Origin: Acidiphilium sp. CAG:727 | GTDB lineage: Bacteria > Bacillota > Clostridia > Christensenellales > Borkfalkiaceae | Assembly: GCA_000437515.1 (NCBI GenBank) | Contig: FR898416.1 | Coordinates: forward strand, 1-32,583 | Length of the DNA stretch: 32,583 bases | Reading direction: 5' to 3' | Shown: piece after piece, positions 122-24,773 of the stretch | How positions within the stretch are numbered: the first letter of the stretch is position 1 | How the letters are laid out: each line of letters starts with the position of its first letter | Made by a program: the position numbers and the translations under genes | Notes under the pieces: model-generated | The model's database searches: none | What the model was told of the DNA's origin: nothing | The model's input: the letters and a program-made list of their open reading frames with translations, nothing else

Positions 122-745
122 TTATCTCATTTTATAATAATTCTTATAGATCCCGTTATGCGTAGAATCGGCGCTTTCGATGAACAGTTTGAATTTGCAT
201 CCGTCGGAATCCGTATCGGATTCATAGCGGATTTCAAAAATCCAGACCGAACCTTTTACGAAGTAGCCGTTATCCAAGGCTTTATTTCTTACGTAATAGA
301 ACTTATATAACTTGCTCGGATTATCGCCGAAATAGTCGGATAAATCATTCTTTTGTTCTATGATATACCAATTTTCGTTCGTGCCCATGCTGTATTTTTC
401 GTTTCTCGGTGTACCGAACATGCCGTCATAATGCGTTTTCAAGTACGAAAAATACGTTTCCGCATTCGCTTGGAAAGTAGCCTCGTCCGGACAAATTTGC
501 GAGAACGAATATCCGTCGTTATACCAGGCGTCGCTTGAATTGATCTTTCCCGACAACCCCGACGGAGCGGGCAGACCCGCAAGCCCTTTTGCCGACAGTT
601 CTTCTTCGGTAAACCATTTCGCGCCGTCGTGGAGCGGCTTCTGAGTTTCTTCTCCGCCGCGGTTATTTTTGCAAGCAGCCGATCCGATGCAGGTTATCGC
701 TAACAACGCCGCGCAAATAATCGTAGATAATTTTTTTCCGAACAT
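122..745 (-). CDS. Putative secreted protein or lipoprotein, function unknown
   Basis: ORF 122..817 trimmed to the internal ATG at 745, which has GGAGG 11 nt upstream (cctcc 757-761 on +). The N-terminus MFGKKLSTIICAALLAITCIGSAAC is a signal peptide ending in a Cys-containing, non-canonical lipobox-like motif. I recognise no family. Confidence 0.6.
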   Translation of the reverse strand: MFGKKLSTIICAALLAITCIGSAACKNNRGGEETQKPLHDGAKWFTEEELSAKGLAGLPAPSGLSGKINSSDAWYNDGYSFSQICPDEATFQANAETYFSYLKTHYDGMFGTPRNEKYSMGTNENWYIIEQKNDLSDYFGDNPSKLYKFYYVRNKALDNGYFVKGSVWIFEIRYESDTDSDGCKFKLFIESADSTHNGIYKNYYKMR

Positions 746-975
746 AATTTTTATAACCTCCGTAACACGGTATTCTTTTGATTGACTTATTATATACCGT
801 TTAATTGCGTTTTGCAAGCATTTTGCAGAGATACGATATAACTCAACGTAAAATTCGTATTAGCGTCTGCCACGGACTTTTACGGATTTTCAACGCTTTT
901 TACGAAAAATCGGCGGAAGTTATCAATAACCCCCCGCCGAACATCGGTTTTTTTTAATTATAACAGACTCCTCTT

Positions 976-2037
976 TTACGGCTTATCCGCTATATCCGTA
1001 AAATAACCCGGATTCTCCGTCCCTCCGTCGATACGGGCGTAAGATTTGTCAGTATGCCCGTCGTCGTAAGAAGTACCTTTCCCTCCCGTAAGTTTTTTGC
1101 ATTGCAAAAACATATTACCGGAAATGGACGCGTTATCCGTATTCCATCCGCTGCCGACGTATACGGAAGCGAGTCTGCCGCAATTAAAGAACATGTGGCT
1201 CATATCCGTAACGCTTCCGGTATTCCAACCGGAAAGGTCTAGCGAGGTAAGATTACCGCACTCGTAAAACATACAAAACATATTAGTAACGGCGGCGGTA
1301 TTCCACGAAGAAACGTCTATCGTCTCAAGTTTTTTGCAACCGCGAAACATACAATACATATTGCTAACTTTGCCGGTGTCCCACGAAGAAAGATCAAGCG
1401 ACGTAAGGCTGCCGCAACCGTAGAACATACTGTTCATATTGGTAACGCCTGCGGTGTTCCACTTTGAAAGGTCAAGCGTCGTCAAAGAAGAACAACCGTG
1501 GAACAAAAACTCCATATCCTCGACGTTTTTGGTATTCCACGAGGTAACGTTTTTTACCTCCGCCAACTTGTCGCAACCGCGAAACATACCGCGCATAGTG
1601 GTAACCATTCCAGTTTCGAAGTTTGAAAAATCGACGGACGTCAGTTCCTTAAGTCCGAAAAACGTTTGAAAGGAATCCGGATTGGCGTAAATTTTTCGGT
1701 TTGAAAGAATATACGCTTTCGTTCCCTTAACGTACAGTTTTATTTTACCCGTTTTTTTCAGGTCGACGTTTGTCGGCTCGATTCCGACGATTTCGCTCTC
1801 GTAATCGTCCGTTTTCCCGAATACGACTTCCGTCACGGAAGTACCCAAAGTATTTCTGAGTTGCAAACCCGGCATAAGCGTGTCTACGCTCGTTAAGTTC
1901 AAAGTAAGATTCCCCACCGGCTTTTCTATCACGTATTTACTCATAGTGAACGCAACGGAAAGAAGAGAAGTTACCAGAAACATAAAAAGTAACGCGATTA
2001 TACTTTTACGTCGGATATTTTTCGTAAAATTTTTCAT
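976..2037 (-). CDS. Surface protein with DUF285 / BspA-like 26-residue repeats and an N-terminal signal anchor
   Basis: At least 6 tandem ~25-26 aa repeats of the form LDLSxWNTxxVTNMxxMFxxCxxLTS, typical of DUF285 / bacterial surface protein 26-residue repeat. C-terminus is ...DGGTENPGYFT. Start moved to ATG 2037, preceded by GGAGAAGG. The N-terminal basic plus hydrophobic segment ends AFTMSKYV. Confidence 0.8.
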   Translation of the reverse strand: MKNFTKNIRRKSIIALLFMFLVTSLLSVAFTMSKYVIEKPVGNLTLNLTSVDTLMPGLQLRNTLGTSVTEVVFGKTDDYESEIVGIEPTNVDLKKTGKIKLYVKGTKAYILSNRKIYANPDSFQTFFGLKELTSVDFSNFETGMVTTMRGMFRGCDKLAEVKNVTSWNTKNVEDMEFLFHGCSSLTTLDLSKWNTAGVTNMNSMFYGCGSLTSLDLSSWDTGKVSNMYCMFRGCKKLETIDVSSWNTAAVTNMFCMFYECGNLTSLDLSGWNTGSVTDMSHMFFNCGRLASVYVGSGWNTDNASISGNMFLQCKKLTGGKGTSYDDGHTDKSYARIDGGTENPGYFTDIADKP

Positions 2038-2054
2038 ATACCTTCTCCGCCTAT

Positions 2055-2591
2055 TTAACAAACTTGCTCGGCGCGAACCGAAACGCCCGTATTCGTGAAA
2101 ACGTAATCCCGCAACAGGATGCTTTCGTCAACTACGGAAAAAACCAAAGTATGATCGTAAGTTTGAGATTTTCCCGCCGTAAAACGCCCCACGTCCGCAA
2201 TCGTAACCGTTTTTCCGTCCGCCGAAACCGTACCGCTCTTTCCGTCCACGGTTACCGAAACGCCGTTCGGCAACGCTTGGGGAAAGGTCACTATCACGTC
2301 GTATTTGAACGCTAATTCCGCCGTTTTCCCCTCTTTCGTATTCGTAACCGTAAAGTTATACGAGGCGGTCGTGATTCCCCGTTCGCAGTCAATCGTCAGA
2401 TTATCGGAAGAACTCCCCCGTAAATCTATAATCAGAACCGAAACCTGCGCGTTGTCGCCGCCTCTTGACGAGGAAAGATTTTTAGCAAAAGAAACGCCGC
2501 TCGCCGCAACGAGAAGAGTTACGAAAAGGATAACGAGCGCAAAAACCGATCTTGCGCCGTTTCCTCTTTTCATTCCTCCGTTTCTTAACAT
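2055..2591 (-). CDS. Small secreted protein, possibly a TasA/camelysin-like beta-sandwich with a SipW-type signal
   Basis: ATG 2591 has GGAGG 6 nt upstream (cctcc 2598-2602 on +). The signal anchor is KRGNGARSVFALVILFVTLLVAASGVSFAKNLSSS. The mature part is beta-rich and ends ...VSVRAEQVC. It is co-directional and closely spaced with its neighbours. Confidence 0.55.
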   Translation of the reverse strand: MLRNGGMKRGNGARSVFALVILFVTLLVAASGVSFAKNLSSSRGGDNAQVSVLIIDLRGSSSDNLTIDCERGITTASYNFTVTNTKEGKTAELAFKYDVIVTFPQALPNGVSVTVDGKSGTVSADGKTVTIADVGRFTAGKSQTYDHTLVFSVVDESILLRDYVFTNTGVSVRAEQVC

Positions 2592-2736
2592 CTTCGTCCT
2601 CCGTCAGCGGTTCGGTTCCCCGGGATTGCCCGACGGAATTTCCGACTGATCCGCTAAAAAATACTTTACTTACTTTCTTATCCGCAGAGGTCGCTTTTTC
2701 CGCGCGACCGAACGGTTTGCTTTATACCTCGCCCGT

Positions 2737-3513
2737 TTACAGAGCGTATTGCGTCACCTGCATATCAAGGTCAAAATCGATTTCCGTGCAGACGTCTTTT
2801 ATCGTCCAGTCGCCGTAAGCGGCGTAACTCGCGTCGTCTGCGCGACGGCCGAGAATCGTGTCGAGTTCGTTAACGGTTATACCGGTAAAGGTTCCCTTCC
2901 CCTCAAACGCCCACGCCCAGACGAGTTCGTAAGTCGTTTCGGCTAATACCTCGCCTGCTTCTTTTACGCTGAGAACGGGGTCGGAATGGAAAGTCAAGGC
3001 AACCTCCATAAGAGTCGTGTTTTCCGCGCCGGTTACGACGACGCCGTTCTTTTTAAGCGTCCATTTAACGGGTTGATATACTATCTCTTCCCCGCCGGCT
3101 TTCTGCAGTTTAAGTACTACGTCCTTTTTCGGGTGTATCCCCATTGCAATCAACGCTTTCACTTCGGCGCGTCCTTTGATCTTAAAGGTCATAGACCCGG
3201 TCGTTCCGGGCGCAATTACGTTATAGTCGCCGCTTGCTTTTACGGTAAGACCGGCAGTATCTGCGGTCGCTTTGCTTACCACGCCGTCGAACTTATAGTT
3301 TTTGCCGAAAAGGTTACTGCCGTCTGCCTCTAAGGTATAACCCCATTTGGCAACCTGCGCTATGCCTTTATCGCTGCTGCTCGTTACGTACTTTGACAAA
3401 GTGTATCCGCCAAAGCACAAAATCGCGATTAATGCAAATAATAATACTGCTATAACCGCCGTTTTCCCGTTATTCTTCCTTTTTGTTTTCTGTTGTGTCA
3501 TCTTCGGCACCAT
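2737..3513 (-). CDS. Secreted protein, TasA/camelysin-like candidate major subunit with a SipW-type signal
   Basis: The N-terminus KTKRKNNGKTAVIAVLLFALIAILCFGGYTLSKYVTSSS resembles SipW-cognate signals (GGTxAYFTD). Internal NVIAPGTTGSMTFKIKG and the C-terminal ...DMQVTQYAL resemble TasA-type exported proteins. The start is uncertain (ATG 3513 or 3501, no clear SD for either). Confidence 0.55.
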   Translation of the reverse strand: MVPKMTQQKTKRKNNGKTAVIAVLLFALIAILCFGGYTLSKYVTSSSDKGIAQVAKWGYTLEADGSNLFGKNYKFDGVVSKATADTAGLTVKASGDYNVIAPGTTGSMTFKIKGRAEVKALIAMGIHPKKDVVLKLQKAGGEEIVYQPVKWTLKKNGVVVTGAENTTLMEVALTFHSDPVLSVKEAGEVLAETTYELVWAWAFEGKGTFTGITVNELDTILGRRADDASYAAYGDWTIKDVCTEIDFDLDMQVTQYAL

Positions 3514-3612
3514 CCATAAAAAAATTTTCTTATTTCAAACGGCTCGCGGCCTGTTTGCTCCTTTTTCGCCCGTCAACTCCGTTCAGGTTGCGTTACCGGA
3601 AATTTTCGGAAA

Positions 3613-3659
3613 TAAAAAAGGTTGCAACCTAGTATCCGTAACGATACTATATTGCAACC
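3613..3659 (-). terminator. Intrinsic terminator forming the riboswitch expression platform
   Basis: Minus-strand hairpin GGTTGCAA-tat-AGTATC-gttacg-GATACT-agg-TTGCAACC (3659 down to 3620), followed by TTTTTTATTT (A-run 3614-3619 on +). It lies ~100 nt upstream of the 2737..3513 CDS. Confidence 0.75.
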
Positions 3660-3834
3660 GGGCGTACTCTTTTTACCAAACCCAAACTCGCCCGCGGTCT
3701 TCGCAGGACGACGCGTAGTTTGTAATAAAGTTCCTTGGCTTTGCGTCACCGCCTCACGACGGTTTTGCCGACAAGTATTCGATTGTCCCGAAAGAGAATT
3801 TACAAGCGATTCGTACCGCTTCTCCCATTTCAGC
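3613..3834 (-). promoter_or_regulatory. c-di-GMP-I (GEMM-I) riboswitch leader: aptamer plus terminator
   Basis: The minus-strand RNA reads ...GUCGGCAAAACC GUC-GUGA-GGC GGUGACGCAAAGCCAAGG... It shows the GEMM-I hallmarks: GGCAAAnCC, a hairpin capped by a GNRA loop (GUGA), then GACGCAAAGCC (ggctttgcgtc 3737-3747 and ggttttgcc 3761-3769 on +). A second helix follows (CAAACU...AGUUUG). The element lies between a consensus promoter and a terminator. Confidence 0.72.
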
Positions 3835-3840
3835 ATTTTC

Positions 3841-3869
3841 ATTATACACTCGTCAAAACTCCTTGTCAA
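3841..3869 (-). promoter_or_regulatory. Consensus sigma-A promoter driving the riboswitch leader
   Basis: The minus strand reads TTGACA (3869-3864), a 17-nt spacer aggagttttgacgagtg, then TATAAT (3846-3841). Both hexamers are perfect. Confidence 0.8.
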
Positions 3870-4096
3870 GCATTTTTGAGAATATAAAAAATTATTCGTA
3901 CAGATACTTTTGTGTTCCGAGAAAGTCGGAACGGGCAACACTTACAATTTATACGTAAACAAGGCGCTGCGGTATATCAAACAAAACTTCAACCGCGACA
4001 TATCAACCGAAAACGAAATCTACCGCGAAACCGTATTCAAGCCCAAATAAAGGTCTGCGCTTATTCCTTTTTACGGTTTTATCGCCCGTTATTCTT

Positions 4097-8139: not shown

Positions 8140-8712
8140 ATGTGGTACGCGTTGTTGTTGGTCGGCGTGGTTTTCTTCGACCAATTTTCCAAAATCTTAG
8201 TTGCCGCGGTCGCGGGCTCTGCGGGAAATACGCCCGACGGCGGAGTTCATATCTGCTGGGTTATAGATAATTTCTTCGAGATTTCTTATTGCGAGAACAA
8301 CGAGGGAATGATGGGGCTGTTTCCCGAAGTGTCGAATATTATCTTCATCGTCGCTTCGATAATCATTCTTATAGGTATCTGCGTATATCTTGCCGTATCG
8401 AAACACCGCGGGAAATGGGTAAACACCGCTCTTATGCTCGTAATGGGCGGCGCGGTAGGCAATCTTATCGACCGCATAATTACCGAATACGTGAGAGATT
8501 TTATCCATATAATAATAAAAATCGGCGGGAAAGAGATATTCCCGTACGTTTTCAACGTAGCCGACGTCGCGTTGGTTATAGGGGCGATAATGCTCGTTAT
8601 TTATATTCTGTTTATCGGTAAAGACGCCGTTTTCAGACGTAAGAAAAAAGACGGCGACGATAAAACGGAAACCGCCGCCGACGCCGCGAAAACTACCGGA
8701 CCTCAAAAATGA
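8140..8712 (+). CDS. lspA: Lipoprotein signal peptidase (signal peptidase II)
   Basis: Has DQFSK, the NxGxxxG region (ENNEGMMGLF), GGAVGNLIDR and FNVADVALVIG, with 4 TM helices. The C-terminal tail is extended and basic. Confidence 0.88.
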   Translation: MWYALLLVGVVFFDQFSKILVAAVAGSAGNTPDGGVHICWVIDNFFEISYCENNEGMMGLFPEVSNIIFIVASIIILIGICVYLAVSKHRGKWVNTALMLVMGGAVGNLIDRIITEYVRDFIHIIIKIGGKEIFPYVFNVADVALVIGAIMLVIYILFIGKDAVFRRKKKDGDDKTETAADAAKTTGPQK

Positions 8713-10168: not shown

Positions 10169-10699
10169 TTATACGTCGTAATCGTCGCGTTCGTCTTCGT
10201 CCTCTTCTTCGTCTTCTTCGCTGTACTCGCCGATGTCGGTAGGATATTCGAAGTCGTCATCGTCGTCGTGAACGCCGTCGTCGTAGTAATCGTCGTCCTG
10301 CTCTTCTTCGTCGTCAAAAAGTTCTTTGGCTTCTTCCTCTTCGAGTTGCGAAAGCGAAAGCATCGCTTCTTCGTCGTCGCCCTGATTGCTTATCGCTTCT
10401 TTTTCGTCCTCGTCGAGATAGTTTCTCCACTCTTCGTCGTTGTCGGGATCGTCCTCGCTCGTTTCTTCGCGTTCCTTTTCGGCGCGAGCCTCTCTGCACT
10501 CCTCGCACATCTCTTCGCCGTCGTCGATAAAGTTACGTTTGCAGATCGGGCAAAGGACCTGATCCTGATCGTCGTCGCCGTCGAGCGCGGCAAATTTTAT
10601 CTGCGGTCCGATTTTGAGTTCAGCCTTACAAACGTCGCAGTACGGCTCGCCTTCGAGCATGTAGTTAAGGTCGCACCTCGGACATTTTACGTATTTCAT
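10169..10699 (-). CDS. Double zinc-ribbon protein with an extremely acidic C-terminal tail; function unknown
   Basis: ORF 10169..10783 trimmed to ATG 10699, preceded by GGGAGA. Two Cys4 units are present (CPRC...CDVC and CPIC...CEEC). About 100 residues follow that are dominated by D/E (DDEEEQDDDYYDDGVHDDDDDFEY...EEDEEEDEDERDDYDV). Confidence 0.7.
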   Translation of the reverse strand: MKYVKCPRCDLNYMLEGEPYCDVCKAELKIGPQIKFAALDGDDDQDQVLCPICKRNFIDDGEEMCEECREARAEKEREETSEDDPDNDEEWRNYLDEDEKEAISNQGDDEEAMLSLSQLEEEEAKELFDDEEEQDDDYYDDGVHDDDDDFEYPTDIGEYSEEDEEEDEDERDDYDV

Positions 10700-10885
10700 T
10701 TTATTCTCCCTGTCGCCCGAAAAAGTTCGGGCTTTATATAATATATATCCGAATTTTAATTTTATGTGCAAAATAACACGCACAAAAAATACGCATAAAC
10801 CGCTTTCGGCGATTCACGCGCATATATTATAGCATAATATTTTTATTTGTAAACTGTTTTATATAACCAAAACGAATTTTTTCAG

Positions 10886-15286: not shown

Positions 15287-16960
15287 TCAGTCTTTTTTGT
15301 TCATTCCGTCTTTAACGGTCTTCGCGTTGCCCGACGTCATTTTGCCGAGAAGAGATTCGTAAATGATTTTGTACTTTTTGCTGTCTTTTTCCGGGGCGTC
15401 GTAGAACTTCGCCTTTTCGGAATCTTTATCCTTATCGGCAATCGATTCGTCTTTATCTACGGTTTCGCAATGCGCGGCGTACTCCGCCGCCTTTTTGGTC
15501 GTGTCTACAGCGTAAACGTAAGACAGGAACGACGAATCGCTGTAAGCCGCGATAAACGCGTAATGAGTTTCGTTTTCAACCTTAAACGCCACGACTTCGG
15601 GTTTATACCAGGAGTTGTCTACGTCGAACGAGTTGATTCTGAACACTTCTTCGTCCATATGCGTACCGTCTTTAAGCAAAGTATAGTTGACTTTGTAATA
15701 GACGTTGCCGTTATGGAAGTAGAGATAATCGTCGTTACCTTCTTTCACGACGAAATCAAGCGTAGCGCCGCTGATCTTTTCGTTATCGAGAATTGTTTGC
15801 GCGCCGTGGTAATAAGGGTCACCTTCGCCCTTCTTCGTGTAATCGTAGAGCATAAGTCTCGAAGAATCGATATACAATATTTCGGAAGAGCCGAGATACA
15901 ACGCCGAATCGGAGAATACCGACGAGGCTACCGCGTCGCCTTCGTAGTTCATGAGTACGGTAACGGCTTCGTCGTTGTACTTAACGGCGTTGTCTTCGCC
16001 GAATTTGCTCCTTTCCATATACTTGTACGACTTCATGTTCGAAGTGGTACTGTCAAGCGAAGTTACGGAATAATAAAGCGTGTCCTGCGTGTATTTTATA
16101 AGGTCGAACGTGGCGCCCGTCATATAAACGCCTTTCTTTTCCGTATTGCCGGAAGTCATCTTTCCGATACCGTCGAGAATACGTTCGGCTTTGGCTTCGA
16201 CCTTGCTTTCGCCGAAGTTCACCGAATATACTTCGTAATAATTTTCGGTAGCGCGATTGCTGTCGTTATCGTCGGGATAAATCGTTTTGTTTACGGGTTT
16301 TATCGTATAGAAAAGCGCGGGATCGCCGACGTCGGACGAGAAAAGGATTTTTTGTATGGAAGAAACGCTGTCGGAATACTTGAATAACTGTTTTCTGCCG
16401 ATCGCGTCGTAAACGTAAAGGTCGGACGAATCTTTTACGATAAGGTAAACGTTTTTACCCGCCGAAACGTAACGATATTCTACCGAAGAGCCGAAATCTT
16501 TACCGCAGATAGATTTGGAGGTATCCGATCCGTCCGCTTTGGTTCTGAAGAACAAAAGTTTATCGGTCTTGACTTCGCCCTTGCTGTTCTTTTCGGTCGA
16601 CGGGGCGGCGTAATAGAAATATTCGTCGAACAGATACACGCCTGCCGCGGTATCGTCGGCAACGAGAAGTTTCGAGATTATGGTATCGCATTTGGCTTCC
16701 GAGCCTTTCGCGATATCGGTCTTTTTAACGCGAACGAGCGCGCCCTTGGTAACCTTGCCGGTTTCGTACTTGCCGGCGTCGGTCTTACCGTTCAGAAAAT
16801 ATACGTAATCGCCCGTTTCGACGAGAAAACCGCCGTTGGAAGAAACCTGCGACACCGTCGGGTCTTTCGATGCAACCGTCGGATTCGCGTCTTTCTTACA
16901 CGCGGCGAGCGATAAAGTCAATAAAGCCGCAAGAAAAACGGCAGACAACTTTTTCAACAT
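15287..16960 (-). CDS. Large lipoprotein, probably a beta-propeller (DUF5050-like repeats)
   Basis: AAGGAG sits 6 nt before ATG 16960. The signal has a canonical lipobox (LTLSLAAC). Blade-like motifs recur (YVYFLNG, YFYYAAP, NVYLIVKDSSDLYVYD, LFYTIKP, LYYSVTS, ILYIDSSRLMLYDY, YLYFHNGNVYYKV). Confidence 0.6.
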   Translation of the reverse strand: MLKKLSAVFLAALLTLSLAACKKDANPTVASKDPTVSQVSSNGGFLVETGDYVYFLNGKTDAGKYETGKVTKGALVRVKKTDIAKGSEAKCDTIISKLLVADDTAAGVYLFDEYFYYAAPSTEKNSKGEVKTDKLLFFRTKADGSDTSKSICGKDFGSSVEYRYVSAGKNVYLIVKDSSDLYVYDAIGRKQLFKYSDSVSSIQKILFSSDVGDPALFYTIKPVNKTIYPDDNDSNRATENYYEVYSVNFGESKVEAKAERILDGIGKMTSGNTEKKGVYMTGATFDLIKYTQDTLYYSVTSLDSTTSNMKSYKYMERSKFGEDNAVKYNDEAVTVLMNYEGDAVASSVFSDSALYLGSSEILYIDSSRLMLYDYTKKGEGDPYYHGAQTILDNEKISGATLDFVVKEGNDDYLYFHNGNVYYKVNYTLLKDGTHMDEEVFRINSFDVDNSWYKPEVVAFKVENETHYAFIAAYSDSSFLSYVYAVDTTKKAAEYAAHCETVDKDESIADKDKDSEKAKFYDAPEKDSKKYKIIYESLLGKMTSGNAKTVKDGMNKKD

Positions 16961-21822: not shown

Positions 21823-22788
21823 TTATTGATTTTTAATTTCTTCGTCTTTGTCGAATACTAAAATTCTGCTTTTGACCTTATTCGGTATAGGGCGACGTTT
21901 TTTATCCAACTCTTCGTATTTGTCGAGCGCTAAAAATTTATATTTTTCACTCTCTGCGTAGCAGGCAATCCGTTCGCCCGCTCCGCACGTATATACCGTT
22001 TCTACGGTCTTGAAATCTTTAGTTACCCGAATTATCTCAACGTCAAAGAGATCCCAGAAATAAATAAATTTTTCGCTCTCATACATGTTCCAATATGCCT
22101 TACCCAGCATATTGACATAATTTATAATATCATTTTCGTTGACTCTGTAAATACGCTTTCCGGGAACGTGTAAATAATTACCTTTTCCTGCAATATGAGA
22201 GAGCAGTTCATTACTTTGAAATATTTTTTCAATAAGATTCAATTTACCGTCTTCAAGATTGTACCGACCATAAATGGTATAAGACGTTTTATGAGAGTTG
22301 TCTGCCGGTTCAAAACAGGACTCAAACAAATAAATATCCCCGCCCGAACACCTGTGTAAAGAATAAAACCGCCTGTGATTATCGTCAATATTGCAGCCGT
22401 AATTATAGTTTGTTATTTCTCTGTTCTTCACGTCTATCACGGCAAGCGAATTGCCCCACAACGAAGACGAACTACCCATAACGTAGATTTTCTCTTCAAT
22501 ATCGTCGTAACAAACGTTTCCATCAATAACGTGATACTTAAATCTTTTAACGATCGAATAATCGTTTATATTCAAAAGCCAACACTCGTCATTGTTTGTT
22601 TCGAGAAATAATAAACCGTATTTATGAATGAACAACATATTGCCGGCATACCTGAAGCCTTTTATCTGAGTTTGTACCGTAGCGGAGTTCATATCTATCA
22701 CACTCGTTCTATGCCCTATCGAATACAATTTCTGCGATTCTTCGTCTATACACATAAAATACGGCGCGCCGATTTTTATAGTTTTCAT
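21823..22788 (-). CDS. Predicted cytoplasmic 7-bladed beta-propeller-like protein, paralog A (candidate immunity protein)
   Basis: ORF 21823..22803 trimmed to ATG 22788, preceded by GGAGA. There is no signal peptide. It is strongly similar to the 23784..24773 product; the N-terminal ~105 aa are roughly 60% identical by eye (e.g. GAPY.M..D...QKLY..G.RT.VID.N; LFIHK.G..FL.TNNDECWLLNI.DYS.V.RFKY). Hydrophobic strand motifs recur at a ~45-aa period. Confidence 0.7.
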   Translation of the reverse strand: MKTIKIGAPYFMCIDEESQKLYSIGHRTSVIDMNSATVQTQIKGFRYAGNMLFIHKYGLLFLETNNDECWLLNINDYSIVKRFKYHVIDGNVCYDDIEEKIYVMGSSSSLWGNSLAVIDVKNREITNYNYGCNIDDNHRRFYSLHRCSGGDIYLFESCFEPADNSHKTSYTIYGRYNLEDGKLNLIEKIFQSNELLSHIAGKGNYLHVPGKRIYRVNENDIINYVNMLGKAYWNMYESEKFIYFWDLFDVEIIRVTKDFKTVETVYTCGAGERIACYAESEKYKFLALDKYEELDKKRRPIPNKVKSRILVFDKDEEIKNQ

Positions 22789-22799
22789 ATTATCTCCGT

Positions 22800-23708
22800 T
22801 CAATCGTTAAAATCGTAATCGGTTAAATCTTCGCTCGATTTCGCTACCACAAGCCTGTCCCATGAGCCTATATATCTGTTACCGTCGAATTCGCAATAAT
22901 CGTCGAGATAGGGCATAACGGCAATTTCACGCTTTTCTTGAAAATCGTTTGAAAATTCATACACGGCTCGACCCGTTCCGATAACAAATCGATCGCCGTA
23001 TTTCTTGACAAATTTAATATATTCCTTCTTGAAAAGACTTTTCCCCTTAATTACCGTATCGCCGTACAAAATCGCTCCGGCATCACAAAATCCGCCGTCA
23101 AAACCTTCAACACCGAGAACGAACACACCGTTCCACTTTTTGATAACTTCTTTATTGATAAGTTTACCGTCAACGAAAGAATACCTGCCGTAAACGGTTT
23201 CATCCGTCAACTTCTTTCGTTTACCCTTTTTAGTAACGCAAAAACTTTCGATAAGATAAAAATCTTCTCCTTCAAATCTCATCAATTCGTAATCGGTACG
23301 GGCTATCATTTCGTCATAACGTGTTTCGAAAGCAAATCTTTTAACAGAAAAAGTTTGTAATTCAATAACCGCAACCACTTCTTTTTTATAATCGTATCCC
23401 CATACGCAAATCTCGTTTTTAGTTCCGTTTATTACTATACGACCGTCTTTTACTCCGGTTTTAACAGAAGCGACGAGTGCAAAATCTTTGAGATTGAATA
23501 CTTTTAAGTCGCCTACCGTATTTAACGCGTAAAGTTTATCGCCCGGATAATCTATACTTGCGTAAGAAAGATAACTGAACCCGCCTATACGCGTAATCTT
23601 ACGCATGGTTTTCAAATCGAAAACGTGAATCGATACCCCTACGCACAACAAGCGTGAATATTTTTCGTCTATCAATATCTGATAAACTCTCATTTTCAAG
23701 TTCTTCAT
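22800..23708 (-). CDS. Predicted beta-propeller-like protein, divergent paralog B (candidate immunity protein)
   Basis: 302 aa, no signal peptide. It shares blade-like motifs with A and C (KLYALNTVGDLKVFNLKDF; ETVYGRYSFVDGKLINKE versus TIYGRYNLEDGKLNLIE). It lies 11 nt upstream of paralog A. Confidence 0.65.
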   Translation of the reverse strand: MKNLKMRVYQILIDEKYSRLLCVGVSIHVFDLKTMRKITRIGGFSYLSYASIDYPGDKLYALNTVGDLKVFNLKDFALVASVKTGVKDGRIVINGTKNEICVWGYDYKKEVVAVIELQTFSVKRFAFETRYDEMIARTDYELMRFEGEDFYLIESFCVTKKGKRKKLTDETVYGRYSFVDGKLINKEVIKKWNGVFVLGVEGFDGGFCDAGAILYGDTVIKGKSLFKKEYIKFVKKYGDRFVIGTGRAVYEFSNDFQEKREIAVMPYLDDYCEFDGNRYIGSWDRLVVAKSSEDLTDYDFND

Positions 23709-23783: not shown

Positions 23784-24773
23784 TTACCGCCCTTTCATGC
23801 ATATTGCGGAAGATTTCATCTCTTCGTTTTTATCAAAAACCATTATTCTGCTTTTGGTAACGTTATACTGCAACACTCCGCGTTCGTTATACTCGTCGCA
23901 TTTGGAAACTGCGACAAACCTGTATTTTTCGCTTTCCGCATAAGACGTCACTTTTTCTCCGAATCCTTTCGTGAAAACCGTTTCAACGCTGTCGAAATCG
24001 ACGGTGGTACGAATTATTTTATCGCTGAACCATTCCCAAAAATAAATATATTTATCCGAAATAAAAAATCTAAAATACAATTCTCCGATTTTAGCGCCGT
24101 AATCTATAACGTCGTTTTCTTTAACTCTATACATAAATCCTTTTATCGGACTTAACATATAATCGTCGTTCCCTTTCGCAAATACGATATCTTCGTTGCC
24201 GGTATATATAGTGTCGATAAGCTGTAATCCGTCTTTAGATAACCGATATTTGCCGTAAATCGTTTCTACGTTTTCGGTCGACGTCGGAAGTATGTCGTAA
24301 GAGCAATTTAGCAGATACAAATCTTCGCCCGCGCACTTATGTGGCGAATAAAAGGATAACCTTCGCCTTTTTTCGTCTATAATACGCGGAAAACAATAAT
24401 TTTCGATGGTCAACGTCTTCAAATCTATAACAGACACTCCGTTATCGATCCCTATCGTACCGAAAACGTAAATTTTATCCGAGACTTCATCAAAACACAC
24501 GTAAGGATCTAAAATACGATACTTAAATCTGTGTACCACGGAATAATCGTCGATATTCAACAACCAACACTCGTCGTTGTTGGTCGCAAGAAATATCCAC
24601 CCGAATTTATGGATAAACAAAATTTTTATAATATATCTGAACCCCGTAAGCCTTTTGCAGATCGTCAACGTATTAAGATCAATCACGTTTGTTCTCGTAC
24701 CGACGGCATATAATTTTTGATTTATCCGGTCTACGTACATAGAATATGGCGCGCCCGCCACAATATCTTTCAT
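23784..24773 (-). CDS. Predicted beta-propeller-like protein, paralog C (candidate cognate immunity protein)
   Basis: ATG 24773 sits 1 nt after the stop of the nuclease ORF (TAAgATG), and a G-rich SD lies inside the toxin 3' end. 329 aa, no signal peptide. About 7 blade-like segments are visible (e.g. KLYAVGTRTNVIDLNTLT; KIYVFGTIGIDNGVSVIDLKTLT; SRIMVFDKN). Confidence 0.7.
   Translation of the reverse strand: MKDIVAGAPYSMYVDRINQKLYAVGTRTNVIDLNTLTICKRLTGFRYIIKILFIHKFGWIFLATNNDECWLLNIDDYSVVHRFKYRILDPYVCFDEVSDKIYVFGTIGIDNGVSVIDLKTLTIENYCFPRIIDEKRRRLSFYSPHKCAGEDLYLLNCSYDILPTSTENVETIYGKYRLSKDGLQLIDTIYTGNEDIVFAKGNDDYMLSPIKGFMYRVKENDVIDYGAKIGELYFRFFISDKYIYFWEWFSDKIIRTTVDFDSVETVFTKGFGEKVTSYAESEKYRFVAVSKCDEYNERGVLQYNVTKSRIMVFDKNEEMKSSAICMKGR

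Follow-up and report, generated by a model that had tools for sequence, protein, structure and literature searches.

What do three adjacent genes build whose products all carry the same unusual signal end, and what controls and processes them? The question is raised by a cassette of three genes, here called gA, gB and gC, in a 32,583-nucleotide stretch of contig FR898416.1 (GCA_000437515.1, Acidiphilium sp. CAG:727, placed by GTDB in the Borkfalkiaceae of the Clostridia); this whole stretch is referred to below as the window. A preliminary description of the DNA had read the cassette as a riboswitch-controlled surface fibre or matrix module with a repeat-protein adhesin. Our analysis leads us to regard gA, gB and gC as, probably, the subunit genes of an extracellular fibre or matrix module that is induced by cyclic di-GMP (c-di-GMP), depends on a SipW-type signal peptidase and belongs to an uncultured gut clostridial lineage. 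The structure that they form is most likely a TasA-like surface fibre with a repeat adhesin at its tip.

A conserved motif ends the signal helices of gA, gB and gC

The three co-directional genes lie on the minus strand. gA (2737..3513) is an open reading frame (ORF) of 258 amino acids (aa) that probably starts at the ATG at 3501 (254 aa), because all gA homologues start at MTQ; its product is the presumed major subunit. gB (2055..2591; 178 aa) presumably encodes a minor subunit, and gC (976..2037; 353 aa) a protein with DUF285/PARCEL (BspA-like leucine-rich repeat, LRR) repeats, the presumed adhesin. As had been described, the three products are built alike, a Lys/Arg-rich N-terminus being followed by one hydrophobic helix and, directly after it, by a short motif. 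The N-terminus of gA reads MTQQKTKRKNNGK-TAVIAVLLFALIAILCFGG-YTLSKYVTSSS, and the corresponding regions are ...VFALVILFVTLLVAASGVSFAKNLSSS in gB and ...IIALLFMFLVTSLLSVAFTMSKYVIEKP in gC; helix and motif together are ...CFGGYTLSKYVTSSS (gA), ...ASGVSFAKNLSSS (gB) and ...SVAFTMSKYVIEKP (gC). The motif, T/S-Φ-A/S-K-Y/N-Φ (Φ, hydrophobic residue), occupies on the minus strand positions 3385-3402 in gA (GGYTLS↓KYVT), 2475-2492 in gB (GVSFA↓KNL) and 1930-1947 in gC (AFTMS↓KYV), the arrow marking the predicted cleavage site. The window has 123 ORFs of 60 aa or more (18,804 aa in all), and in these the pattern [ST]-Φ-[AS]-[KR]-[YFN]-Φ occurs exactly three times, in gA, gB and gC.

Because this pattern was derived from the three proteins themselves, its conservation in homologues is the independent test. 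Homologues of gA are numerous: 856 were found at E<=1e-3, the best 120 being 71-96% identical and around 254-265 aa long, and a library clustered at 50% identity gave 1886 representatives at the same threshold (569 at E<=1e-10). All but one of the 150 best of these cluster representatives, 149 in number, carry T-Φ-[AS]-[KR]-Y, at a median position of 32 and most commonly as TFAKY; the lone exception is a C-terminal fragment. A set of 41 gA relatives of 30-47% identity shows no variation at Y38, A48, A51, W53 and G54 and almost none at T34, K37, V50 and K52 (254-aa numbering), which gives the consensus FGGxTxAKYxT...ATVAKWG. The gB orthologues keep GVSFAK[NS], longer gB-like proteins have GGT[VI]TFA[KR]F[YH], and the gC orthologues of 15 loci keep T[MV]SKYV. 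Conservation of the motif in homologues, whose absence would have refuted the preliminary description, is thus found in all three families.

That description had also likened the placement and shape of the motif to the signals cleaved by SipW in TasA/camelysin-type proteins, though the sequence differs. The likeness holds up at the level of register. B. subtilis TasA, whose mature chain starts at A28 (checked against PDB 8aur), and five plasmid-borne TasA/CalY proteins share the SipW-type end GGGT[WY]A↓[AY]F[NS]D; T-L-S↓K-Y of gA, S-F-A↓K-N of gB and T-M-S↓K-Y of gC correspond to T-W-A↓A-F of TasA and T-Y-A↓Y-F of the CalY-like proteins, whose signal end GGGTYAYFSD aligns with GGYTLS↓KYVT of gA. 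Comparison of gA with TasA alone by hhalign placed GGYTLSKYVT on GGGTWAAFND in the same register, over only ten residues and with an E value of 0.34 that is not significant. As read from the sequences, the signal layout is shared with TasA/CalY (T at -3, a small residue at -1, an aromatic residue at +2) and differs by the Lys/Arg at +1. By analogy, cleavage is predicted at S40↓K41 of gA (258-aa ORF), A36↓K37 of gB and S33↓K34 of gC. A type IV prepilin-like signal was rejected, as the motif comes after the hydrophobic helix and not before it, and a DUF4179 match arising from the transmembrane (TM) helix, obtained when gA, gB and the 41 gA relatives were compared with Pfam and NCBIfam, was considered noise.

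The C-terminal ends reported earlier, ...VTQYAL in gA and ...AEQVC in gB, are correct, and the terminal strand, which had been likened to that of TasA, is conserved: Q251 is invariant in gA and AEQ in gB, and TasA has FEATQ. No family of Pfam or NCBIfam was matched by gA or gB. Among the 120 gA homologues listed, of 856, none bears a Pfam domain or a source name; of the 130 gB homologues, none of the 120 listed is named, nor is any in cluster look-ups, and PF13173 was seen on one 261-aa gB homologue. The families of gA and gB are homologous to each other (hhalign probability 93%, E 2.7e-7, 134 columns).

For gC, the earlier assignment to the DUF285/BspA-like repeat proteins, with no LPXTG or other anchor, proved right. 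It matches PF03382 (5e-43, 146 bits for a cut-off of 25), LRR_5 (8e-12) and TIGR02167 (2.6e-60, 199 bits for a cut-off of 30; six stretches corresponding to six PARCEL repeats), and its C-terminus, ...GYFTD, is typical of DUF285/PARCEL proteins. No LPXTG-like motif or C-terminal anchor was found in gA, gB or gC; sortase pili were rejected on these grounds and because no sortase domain occurs among the called genes of three related loci (L001-L003; related loci are given L numbers throughout). The length of gC orthologues ranges from 285 to 767 aa (15 loci). Cassettes that are otherwise alike (L005-L024) differ here by gain or loss of repeats of about 26 aa, and gC has many internal blastn self-matches of 66-79% identity.

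A SipW-type peptidase gene belongs to the operon in relatives

The genomic context of the cassette was compared in one metagenomic look-up and in 39 loci of GTDB species genomes, all of them metagenome-assembled genomes (MAGs) of uncultured gut Clostridia; the sources include Clostridium sp. CAG:448, an Anaerovoracaceae MAG, an 'Acholeplasmatales' MAG and Candidatus Coproplasma. Their ORFs were sorted by family hidden Markov models (HMMs), and four contigs were too short to show sipW downstream. A SipW-type peptidase gene was found downstream of gA in 29 related loci, two genes downstream in 27 of them. The canonical order is gA, a gene that we call x260, a SipW-like gene (around 196 aa), gB or a longer gB-like gene, and a DUF285 protein gene. 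The order gA - x260 - SipW-like holds in 27 of the 29 sipW-bearing loci; in L010 gA is directly followed by sipW, and in L038 x260 is split into two ORFs. A gB or gB-like gene follows in 21 of the sipW-bearing loci, and gC in seven of those.

The 196-aa protein scored 75.8 bits against TIGR02228 (signal peptidase I of the archaeal/ER type; cut-off 51.85) and 69 bits against the B. subtilis SipW equivalog, under its strict cut-off of 190. The SipW-like boxes SM, THR and KGD.N are kept in 29 sequences. The second gene of the operon, x260 (L001:10893-11675), encodes a protein of about 260 aa in which a single TM helix separates a cytoplasmic N-domain (about 90 aa) from a gA-like ectodomain (LRPGTKGEY...), and was found in 31 loci, namely 28 of the 29 sipW-bearing ones and L016, L017 and L035. 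It matched nothing in Pfam or NCBIfam, and the gA HMM also touches it (1e-5 to 1e-7). This membrane-anchored protein lacks the motif of gA, gB and gC; it might serve the fibre as its base in the membrane, or act as a sensor in the cytoplasm.

Contigs of distant representatives were mostly too short to inform, L045 (GCA_017629925.1, JAGBWH010000219.1, 961-10513) being the useful one. Its gA is 32% identical, and two SipW-type genes flank two gA-like genes, an x260-like gene and genes of two large proteins. The signal end [ST]-x-[AST]-[KR]-Y-[VIA] stands on the gA-like and the large proteins, and not on the x260-like protein; the c-di-GMP signature described below was not found at this locus. 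The two large proteins, of 619 aa (VSSYSRYVSG) and >1095 aa (STLTRYVATV), are unrelated cargo, and the presence of the motif on non-homologous cargo indicates that it travels with the peptidase.

The leader contains a c-di-GMP-I riboswitch and an overlapping terminator

The proposed riboswitch control was substantiated, the element lying outside the 976-3513 span of the genes. A c-di-GMP-I (GEMM-I) aptamer is located at 3650..3779 on the minus strand, with a full-length match to RF01051 (model positions 1-87; 44.2 bits for a gathering score of 35, E 2.8e-7). About 60 nucleotides (nt) upstream of it stands a sigma-70-type promoter, TTGACA-17-TATAAT (3841..3869, minus strand), with 12 of 12 consensus matches; it is the best sigma-70-type match within the first 4.4 kb. 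A scan of the whole window with Rfam at gathering thresholds missed the aptamer, because of a 51-nt insertion at the tip of its second hairpin, and a search of the short stretch found RF01051. The conserved core segments (GGCAAA..., GACGCAAAGCC and ...GCC-GG) are identical to the consensus in all three cases in the cmscan alignment; we take them to hold the counterparts of the Vc2 ligand contacts G20, A47 and C92.

The element is widespread in the family. In 35 of 40 related loci the signature ACGCAAAGC precedes gA by around 250 nt, Rfam identified an aptamer of the c-di-GMP-I clan in 13 of 14 loci tested, and RF01051 was obtained at 43.6-43.7 bits in L012 and L018, each searched alone. Insertions of 51-58 nt were seen in the aptamers of the window, L004, L007-L009, L012, L016, L018 and L023. 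In a bulk Rfam search such aptamers are called the GGC variant RF03167 (around 33 bits, below threshold), and short stretches give RF01051 at 43.6-44.2 bits. The distant loci L029, L031, L035 and L037 have compact aptamers of 80-84 nt that score 51-58 bits.

Downstream of the aptamer, an intrinsic terminator (3611..3659, minus strand; stem of 9+7 bp, -22.4 kcal/mol, followed by U6) forms the expression platform. Its 5′ arm, GGUUGCAAU, overlaps the closing 3′ strand of the aptamer, CCCGGUUGC. The same overlap, sharing CCCGGUUGC, was present in all 28 related loci examined; the shared segment CCCGGUUGCAA is kept in the 28 loci and the inner terminator stem covaries. Because the aptamer and the terminator need the same nucleotides, a bound ligand should keep transcription from terminating, which predicts a c-di-GMP ON switch. 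At the other end of the cassette, a terminator-like hairpin with an eight-pair stem, followed by GCCGATTTTT, lies about 40 nt past the gC stop (905..934, minus strand). In L001 and L002, genes of c-di-GMP turnover adjoin the riboswitch operon: a GGDEF and HD/HD-GYP response regulator, a solute-binding protein, a hybrid histidine kinase and an Hpt protein are encoded directly downstream of the full cassette (L001:14209-19464; also in L002).

The window carries a truncated copy of the operon

As had been stated, lspA (8140..8712; Peptidase_A8, 1.9e-30) is the sole signal peptidase gene in the window, and tblastn with the SipW-like protein found nothing there. The search proposed earlier for a sipW-type gene gave a divided answer: such a gene is present in the 29 related loci and in the nearest MAG, and none in the window. 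The DNA alignment explains how the window copy differs. Window positions 2692-3877 correspond to the gA region of L001, and positions 1451-2700 correspond to the part of L001 that begins ~35 nt before the end of sipW. Frame 0 of the 145-nt gap between gA and gB reads GRAEKATSADKKVSK, for comparison with SipW C-termini that read, up to the stop, ...RRGKTDSADSESK and ...KEKADPADSESK and, in a further listing of true SipW proteins, ...VIEDKWKEKADPADSESK and ...EDKRRGKTDSADSESK. Alignment and translation of the gap together show that x260 and nearly all of sipW have been deleted, a relic of the sipW C-terminal coding region being left as a deletion scar at 2665..2709 (minus strand). L005 likewise keeps ITEDKWSGKTDFTDSESK and a stop in its gap. 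An independent assembly, L054 (run ERR4091393), reproduces the junction with 99.8% identity over a stretch that runs from gA through the gap and gB into the beginning of gC; the junction is therefore not an assembly artefact. On the evidence of this alignment, the three-gene cassette is a truncated derivative of the five-gene operon, so that its peptidase would have to come from elsewhere in the genome.

The deletion also accounts for the stem-loop noticed previously in the gap. The pairing ggtcgc/gcgacc at 2689-2709 exists (-15.9 kcal/mol for a 41-nt segment, z = -2.0), and the gap, taken over its full 145 nt, shows no unusual degree of structure (z = -0.12). The suggestion that it reduces expression of the downstream genes as a conserved attenuator was rejected: it sits on the deletion junction, no U-tract follows it, and it is absent from other short cassettes (L005-L008). 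Its 5′ arm is part of a GC hairpin that follows gA in full cassettes, and its 3′ arm lies in the sipW relic. The hairpin of the full cassettes is strong, with 9-10 GC pairs (z = -3.7 and -2.9), and lacks a U-tract. Its presence there indicates an ancestral feature, of which the window version is a chimeric remnant; plausibly, the ancestral hairpin is an mRNA-stabilising or partial-termination element. The loop of this 9-10-bp all-GC hairpin (L001:10806-10832) is AAAAAA in L001 and L012 and TTTTTT in L013, L015 and L021, as if the palindrome had been inverted.

The short form is not confined to the window. gA, gB and gC without x260 and sipW also occur in six related loci (L005-L009, L011) from several MAGs. 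L004, in the nearest MAG, B44_16 (JAJWOJ010000133.1), is 96% identical to the window in DNA and lacks window positions 993-2648; about 90 nt after gA its contig passes directly into the region downstream of gC, gB and gC thus being lost. This loss and the absence of x260 from L010 show that the cassette is recombinationally plastic. MAG B44_16 also holds a short cassette (L009) and two full sipW cassettes (L018 and L033), and a short and a full cassette coexist in CAKQKE01 (L005 and L027) and in CAAGAM01 (L011 and L032). With two complete cassettes in the nearest MAG, processing in trans becomes plausible. Comparison of the window with short and full cassettes gave ratios of nonsynonymous to synonymous substitution (dN/dS) of 0.28-0.37 for gA and 0.30-0.43 for gB, that is, purifying selection. 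These values argue that the genes are functional, and we read the window copy as a functional satellite that has no peptidase gene of its own and would rely on a SipW encoded elsewhere.

The gA model bears a marginal likeness to the TasA fibre

An AlphaFold2 model of gA, built with 41 diverse sequences, is a beta-sandwich with two helices (predicted local distance difference test, pLDDT, 81; predicted template modelling score, pTM, 0.72), with low confidence in the post-signal segment 33-44 and in residues 70-91. In a Foldseek search of the PDB with this model, the best match was the TasA fibre, 8aur_A (probability 0.89, E 4.9e-3, TM-score 0.28/0.30, root-mean-square deviation 17.8). A TasA/CalY profile was made from six sequences, five of them from Bacillus plasmids. 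The gB-like profile aligned with it at E 9.8e-4 and a probability of 22% over 88 columns, which comprise the signal, the next strand and a block in which 'DVEPED..YYFTVTG' resembles 'NLKPGD..F.L.N.G'. A TasA-like fold of gA is at most suggested by the model. The fibre and fold proposed in the preliminary description stood in part: the top PDB match is indeed the TasA fibre, at a TM-score of about 0.3, and profile kinship of gA with TasA/CalY was not recovered. The HMM searches proposed there likewise found DUF285 on gC, and neither TasA/camelysin nor SipW-cognate families.

A proposed SipW-dependent fibre and its alternatives

We propose the following course of events. Transcription from the sigma-70 promoter would run into the c-di-GMP-I aptamer; high c-di-GMP would stabilise the aptamer, the terminator would be blocked and the operon transcribed. 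The pre-proteins would insert into the membrane via their signal-anchor and, by analogy with GGGTWA↓AFND of TasA, be cut after T-Φ-[AS] by a SipW-type peptidase, which the strain of the window would have to obtain from a complete paralogous cassette at another place in its genome. The freed N-termini and the conserved A-x-V-A-K-W-G strand would then polymerise gA as donor strands, on the analogy of TasA strand exchange and TapA-type nucleation (PMC9674648, PMC10151520). gB would be a minor subunit, and the repeat-variable DUF285 protein gC could form an adhesive end-piece attached through the same N-terminal element. In full cassettes, x260 may serve as the uncleaved membrane base. What has been demonstrated is the genetic architecture (promoter, riboswitch and its overlap with the terminator, conservation of the motif, synteny with SipW, deletion scar) and purifying selection; the biochemical steps, from the ON logic to cleavage, fibre formation, adhesion and processing in trans, are inferred.

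Several results weigh against this proposal. Neither sipW nor x260 was found by tblastn in the 32.6-kb window, and gB and gC are likewise missing from the near-identical L004, a possible sign that the cassette is decaying. The curated models of SipW-cognate signals and of TapA/TasA-type proteins in NCBIfam matched none of gA, gB and gC. We take TIGR04088 to be the curated SipW-cognate signal-peptide model. Among the NCBIfam matches of the 41 gA relatives there was no SipW-cognate family; TapA (TIGR04087) appeared at 3e-3 in two of the 41, which was judged noise. Pfam and NCBIfam models of TasA/camelysin (Peptidase_M73) and BsaA did not match gA or its relatives, the gA-family HMM matched no PDB sequence, and hhalign found nothing between the gA and TasA/CalY profiles (probability 0.2%). 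The Foldseek likeness of gA to TasA is marginal, with no PDB match at E<=1e-3 and monomeric TasA (5of1) outside the top 50, and the AlphaFold2 model of gB is unreliable (pLDDT 55, from a shallow alignment). We conclude that the system would work like TasA/SipW and that membership of gA and gB in the TasA family is not supported by profile searches.

One rival explanation is that the proteins are ordinary secreted or anchored surface proteins that form no fibre. The K-Y motif would then be the start of the mature domain or the juxtamembrane segment of an uncleaved signal-anchor, and the SipW-like gene would encode a general signal peptidase or a non-catalytic chaperone like SipA/LepA of streptococcal pilus loci. 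The silence of the curated SipW-cognate and TasA models, the weak fold evidence and a Lys at the putative +1 position, which TasA/CalY do not have, fit this explanation. However, the motif is found at the same place on cargo that is not homologous (beta-sandwich, DUF285, 619-aa and >1095-aa proteins) and always in operons with a SipW-type gene whose catalytic Ser/His boxes are conserved, whereas the membrane-anchored x260 of the same operon lacks it, and the register T-Φ-[AS]↓x-[YF] is that of the experimentally known TasA site; we therefore hold this explanation to be rather unlikely. A far smaller chance is given to a BsaA-type matrix polymer with covalent cross-links, or to a pilus built without sortase, in which SipW would aid export and isopeptide bonds would take the place of donor strands. 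C. perfringens BsaA depends on SipW and forms polymers resistant to sodium dodecyl sulphate and formic acid (PMC7395162), and a preprint names in its title intermolecular isopeptide bonds of a C. perfringens matrix protein, indicated to be BsaA (10.1101/2024.11.04.621531). gA has invariant Lys, Asp and Asn positions, but none of the 41 gA-family members matched a BsaA-type family of NCBIfam, and neither a sortase nor LPXTG was found. The BsaA-type family is presumably CPF_0494, TIGR04089.

The main alternative to a functional satellite is a decaying remnant, that is, a non-functional leftover of the five-gene operon whose proteins are poorly processed and whose locus is being lost stepwise. 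The SipW relic and deletion junction between gA and gB would agree with it, as would the further loss of gB and gC from the 96%-identical L004 and the different rearrangement of L010, where sipW directly follows gA. But the three ORFs are intact, promoter, aptamer and terminator are perfectly preserved, and gA and gB show the dN/dS of 0.28-0.43 given above against both kinds of cassette. Furthermore, the same three-gene form is kept in the six more loci of several MAGs, and the short-cassette genomes B44_16, CAKQKE01 and CAAGAM01 also carry full sipW cassettes. Decay consequently appears improbable to us, about as much so as ordinary surface proteins, and the functional satellite, processed in trans, is the interpretation that we retain.

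A broader interpretation was considered as well, to which we attach appreciable doubt. The K/R-Y signal end might be a portable address tag of an undescribed fibre system extending throughout gut Clostridia, in which any tagged protein would be cut by the SipW-type peptidase of the cassette and plugged onto the gA fibre through the N-terminal strand thus created. The tagged cargo would perhaps comprise beta-sandwich subunits, DUF285 LRR adhesins and proteins of >1000 aa. A genome would on this hypothesis possess several cassettes, each under its own c-di-GMP ON riboswitch and some of them trans-processed satellites.

Comparison with known fibre and matrix systems

Matrix fibres that depend on SipW are known from TasA/TapA of B. 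subtilis, TasA/CalY of B. cereus and BsaA of C. perfringens (PMC7395162). In TasA fibres the subunits are joined by exchange of N-terminal donor strands, and both TasA and TapA are cleaved by SipW (PMC9674648). As in the tapA-sipW-tasA operon of B. subtilis, the gut cassette in its full form combines an ER/archaeal-type peptidase with a major subunit of beta-sandwich type and with accessory subunits (PMC9674648, PMC10151520). It also shares with TasA the end of the signal helix (G-G-x-T-Φ-small↓x-aromatic), a strand after the cleavage site and a terminal strand ...x-Q, and the biofilm/matrix logic of that operon applies to it too. However, gA has no detectable sequence homology to TasA/CalY and bears Lys/Arg at +1. 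The gut operon places the subunit first and the peptidase third, contains an extra membrane-anchored paralogue with a cytoplasmic domain and a DUF285 LRR co-substrate, and is controlled by a c-di-GMP riboswitch, whereas the B. subtilis operon is under SinR; in the window, the peptidase gene has been deleted.

Among Clostridia, the closest parallel in export is sipW-bsaABC(RSD) of C. perfringens, where SipW is needed to export the polymer-forming matrix protein BsaA and two accessory Bsa proteins are encoded in the operon (PMC7395162). gA and gB have no family-level match to BsaA, whose polymers are extremely resistant and reported to be isopeptide-linked. TasA/CalY (camelysin) of the B. cereus group resemble the present proteins in the signal end GGGTYAYFSD and in the 'NLKPGD..F.L.N.G' block, which gives the weak match to gB-like proteins (E 9.8e-4, 88 columns); the probability is just 22%, the gA family is unmatched and Peptidase_M73 was not found. 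The archaeal TasA-like filaments (the bundling pili AbpA and cannulae) are donor-strand-complemented beta-sandwich fibres that an archaeal-type signal peptidase processes (PMC9245690; bioRxiv 10.1101/2024.12.30.630787), but they belong to another domain of life, have no riboswitch and are not among the top 50 fold matches of gA. The repeats of gC and its ...GYFTD end are those of DUF285/PARCEL/BspA-like LRR proteins of Mycoplasma, Listeria, Treponema and Bacteroidota. Unlike these, gC has neither lipobox nor LPXTG, carries a SipW-type signal end and is co-transcribed with fibre subunits.

c-di-GMP-I (GEMM-I) riboswitches commonly precede adhesin, pilus and flagellar genes in Clostridia such as Clostridioides difficile. 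The present riboswitch is of the same class, stands in the leader of surface genes and has a terminator-based platform; it departs from the usual form by the 51-58-nt insertion and by its SipW/TasA-like cargo. In a literature search that fell short of all journals, we did not find the combination of a c-di-GMP riboswitch with SipW/TasA-like or DUF285 proteins described. Several aspects are new. The subunit family is large and unannotated and has a variant of the cognate signal; its operon is laid out to include a membrane-anchored paralogue and a DUF285 cargo; a SipW-type cassette is under the control of a riboswitch; and a genome can carry more than one cassette, peptidase-less satellites among them.

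Surroundings of the cassette

The rest of the window is ordinary chromosome, with genes of NAPRTase, lspA, rluD-like, murC-like, ABC-F, an ECF transporter, truA, GlnRS/GluRS, ProRS-like and MatE. Directly downstream of the cassette lies a lipoprotein-like gene (122-742, minus strand; 206 aa, lipobox-like ...GSAAC) with its own promoter, TTGCAA-17-TATAAT (817..789). It is not part of the operon, because in L001 its homologue is encoded on the opposite strand, about 6 kb ahead of the cassette. Sizeable ORFs with no Pfam match at 1e-4 to 1e-5 are located at 10169-10783, 15287-16960, 21823-22803, 22800-23708 and 23784-24773, all on the minus strand; three of them are consecutive and adjoin the ECF-transporter and truA genes.

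Implications for gut Clostridia

If the proposed reading is correct, a family of around 1,900 clusters at 50% identity, so far unannotated, unnamed in its sources and covered by neither a Pfam nor an NCBIfam model, would consist of SipW-dependent surface-fibre subunits of abundant uncultured Clostridia of the human gut. Their fibre would gain a simple regulatory input in the form of a c-di-GMP ON riboswitch, and DUF285/PARCEL proteins, for which it is unclear how Firmicutes export and anchor them, would be tied to a specific processing pathway. The SipW-cognate signal would widen to T-Φ-[AS]↓[KR]-[YF], which would improve the annotation of exported proteins. On the practical side, a large insertion hides a c-di-GMP-I riboswitch from standard Rfam scans. 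Should the signal end act as a portable tag, these bacteria could display varied combinations of fibre and adhesin as c-di-GMP rises. The peptidase-less satellites would offer natural experiments on processing in trans and on the modular evolution of matrix operons.

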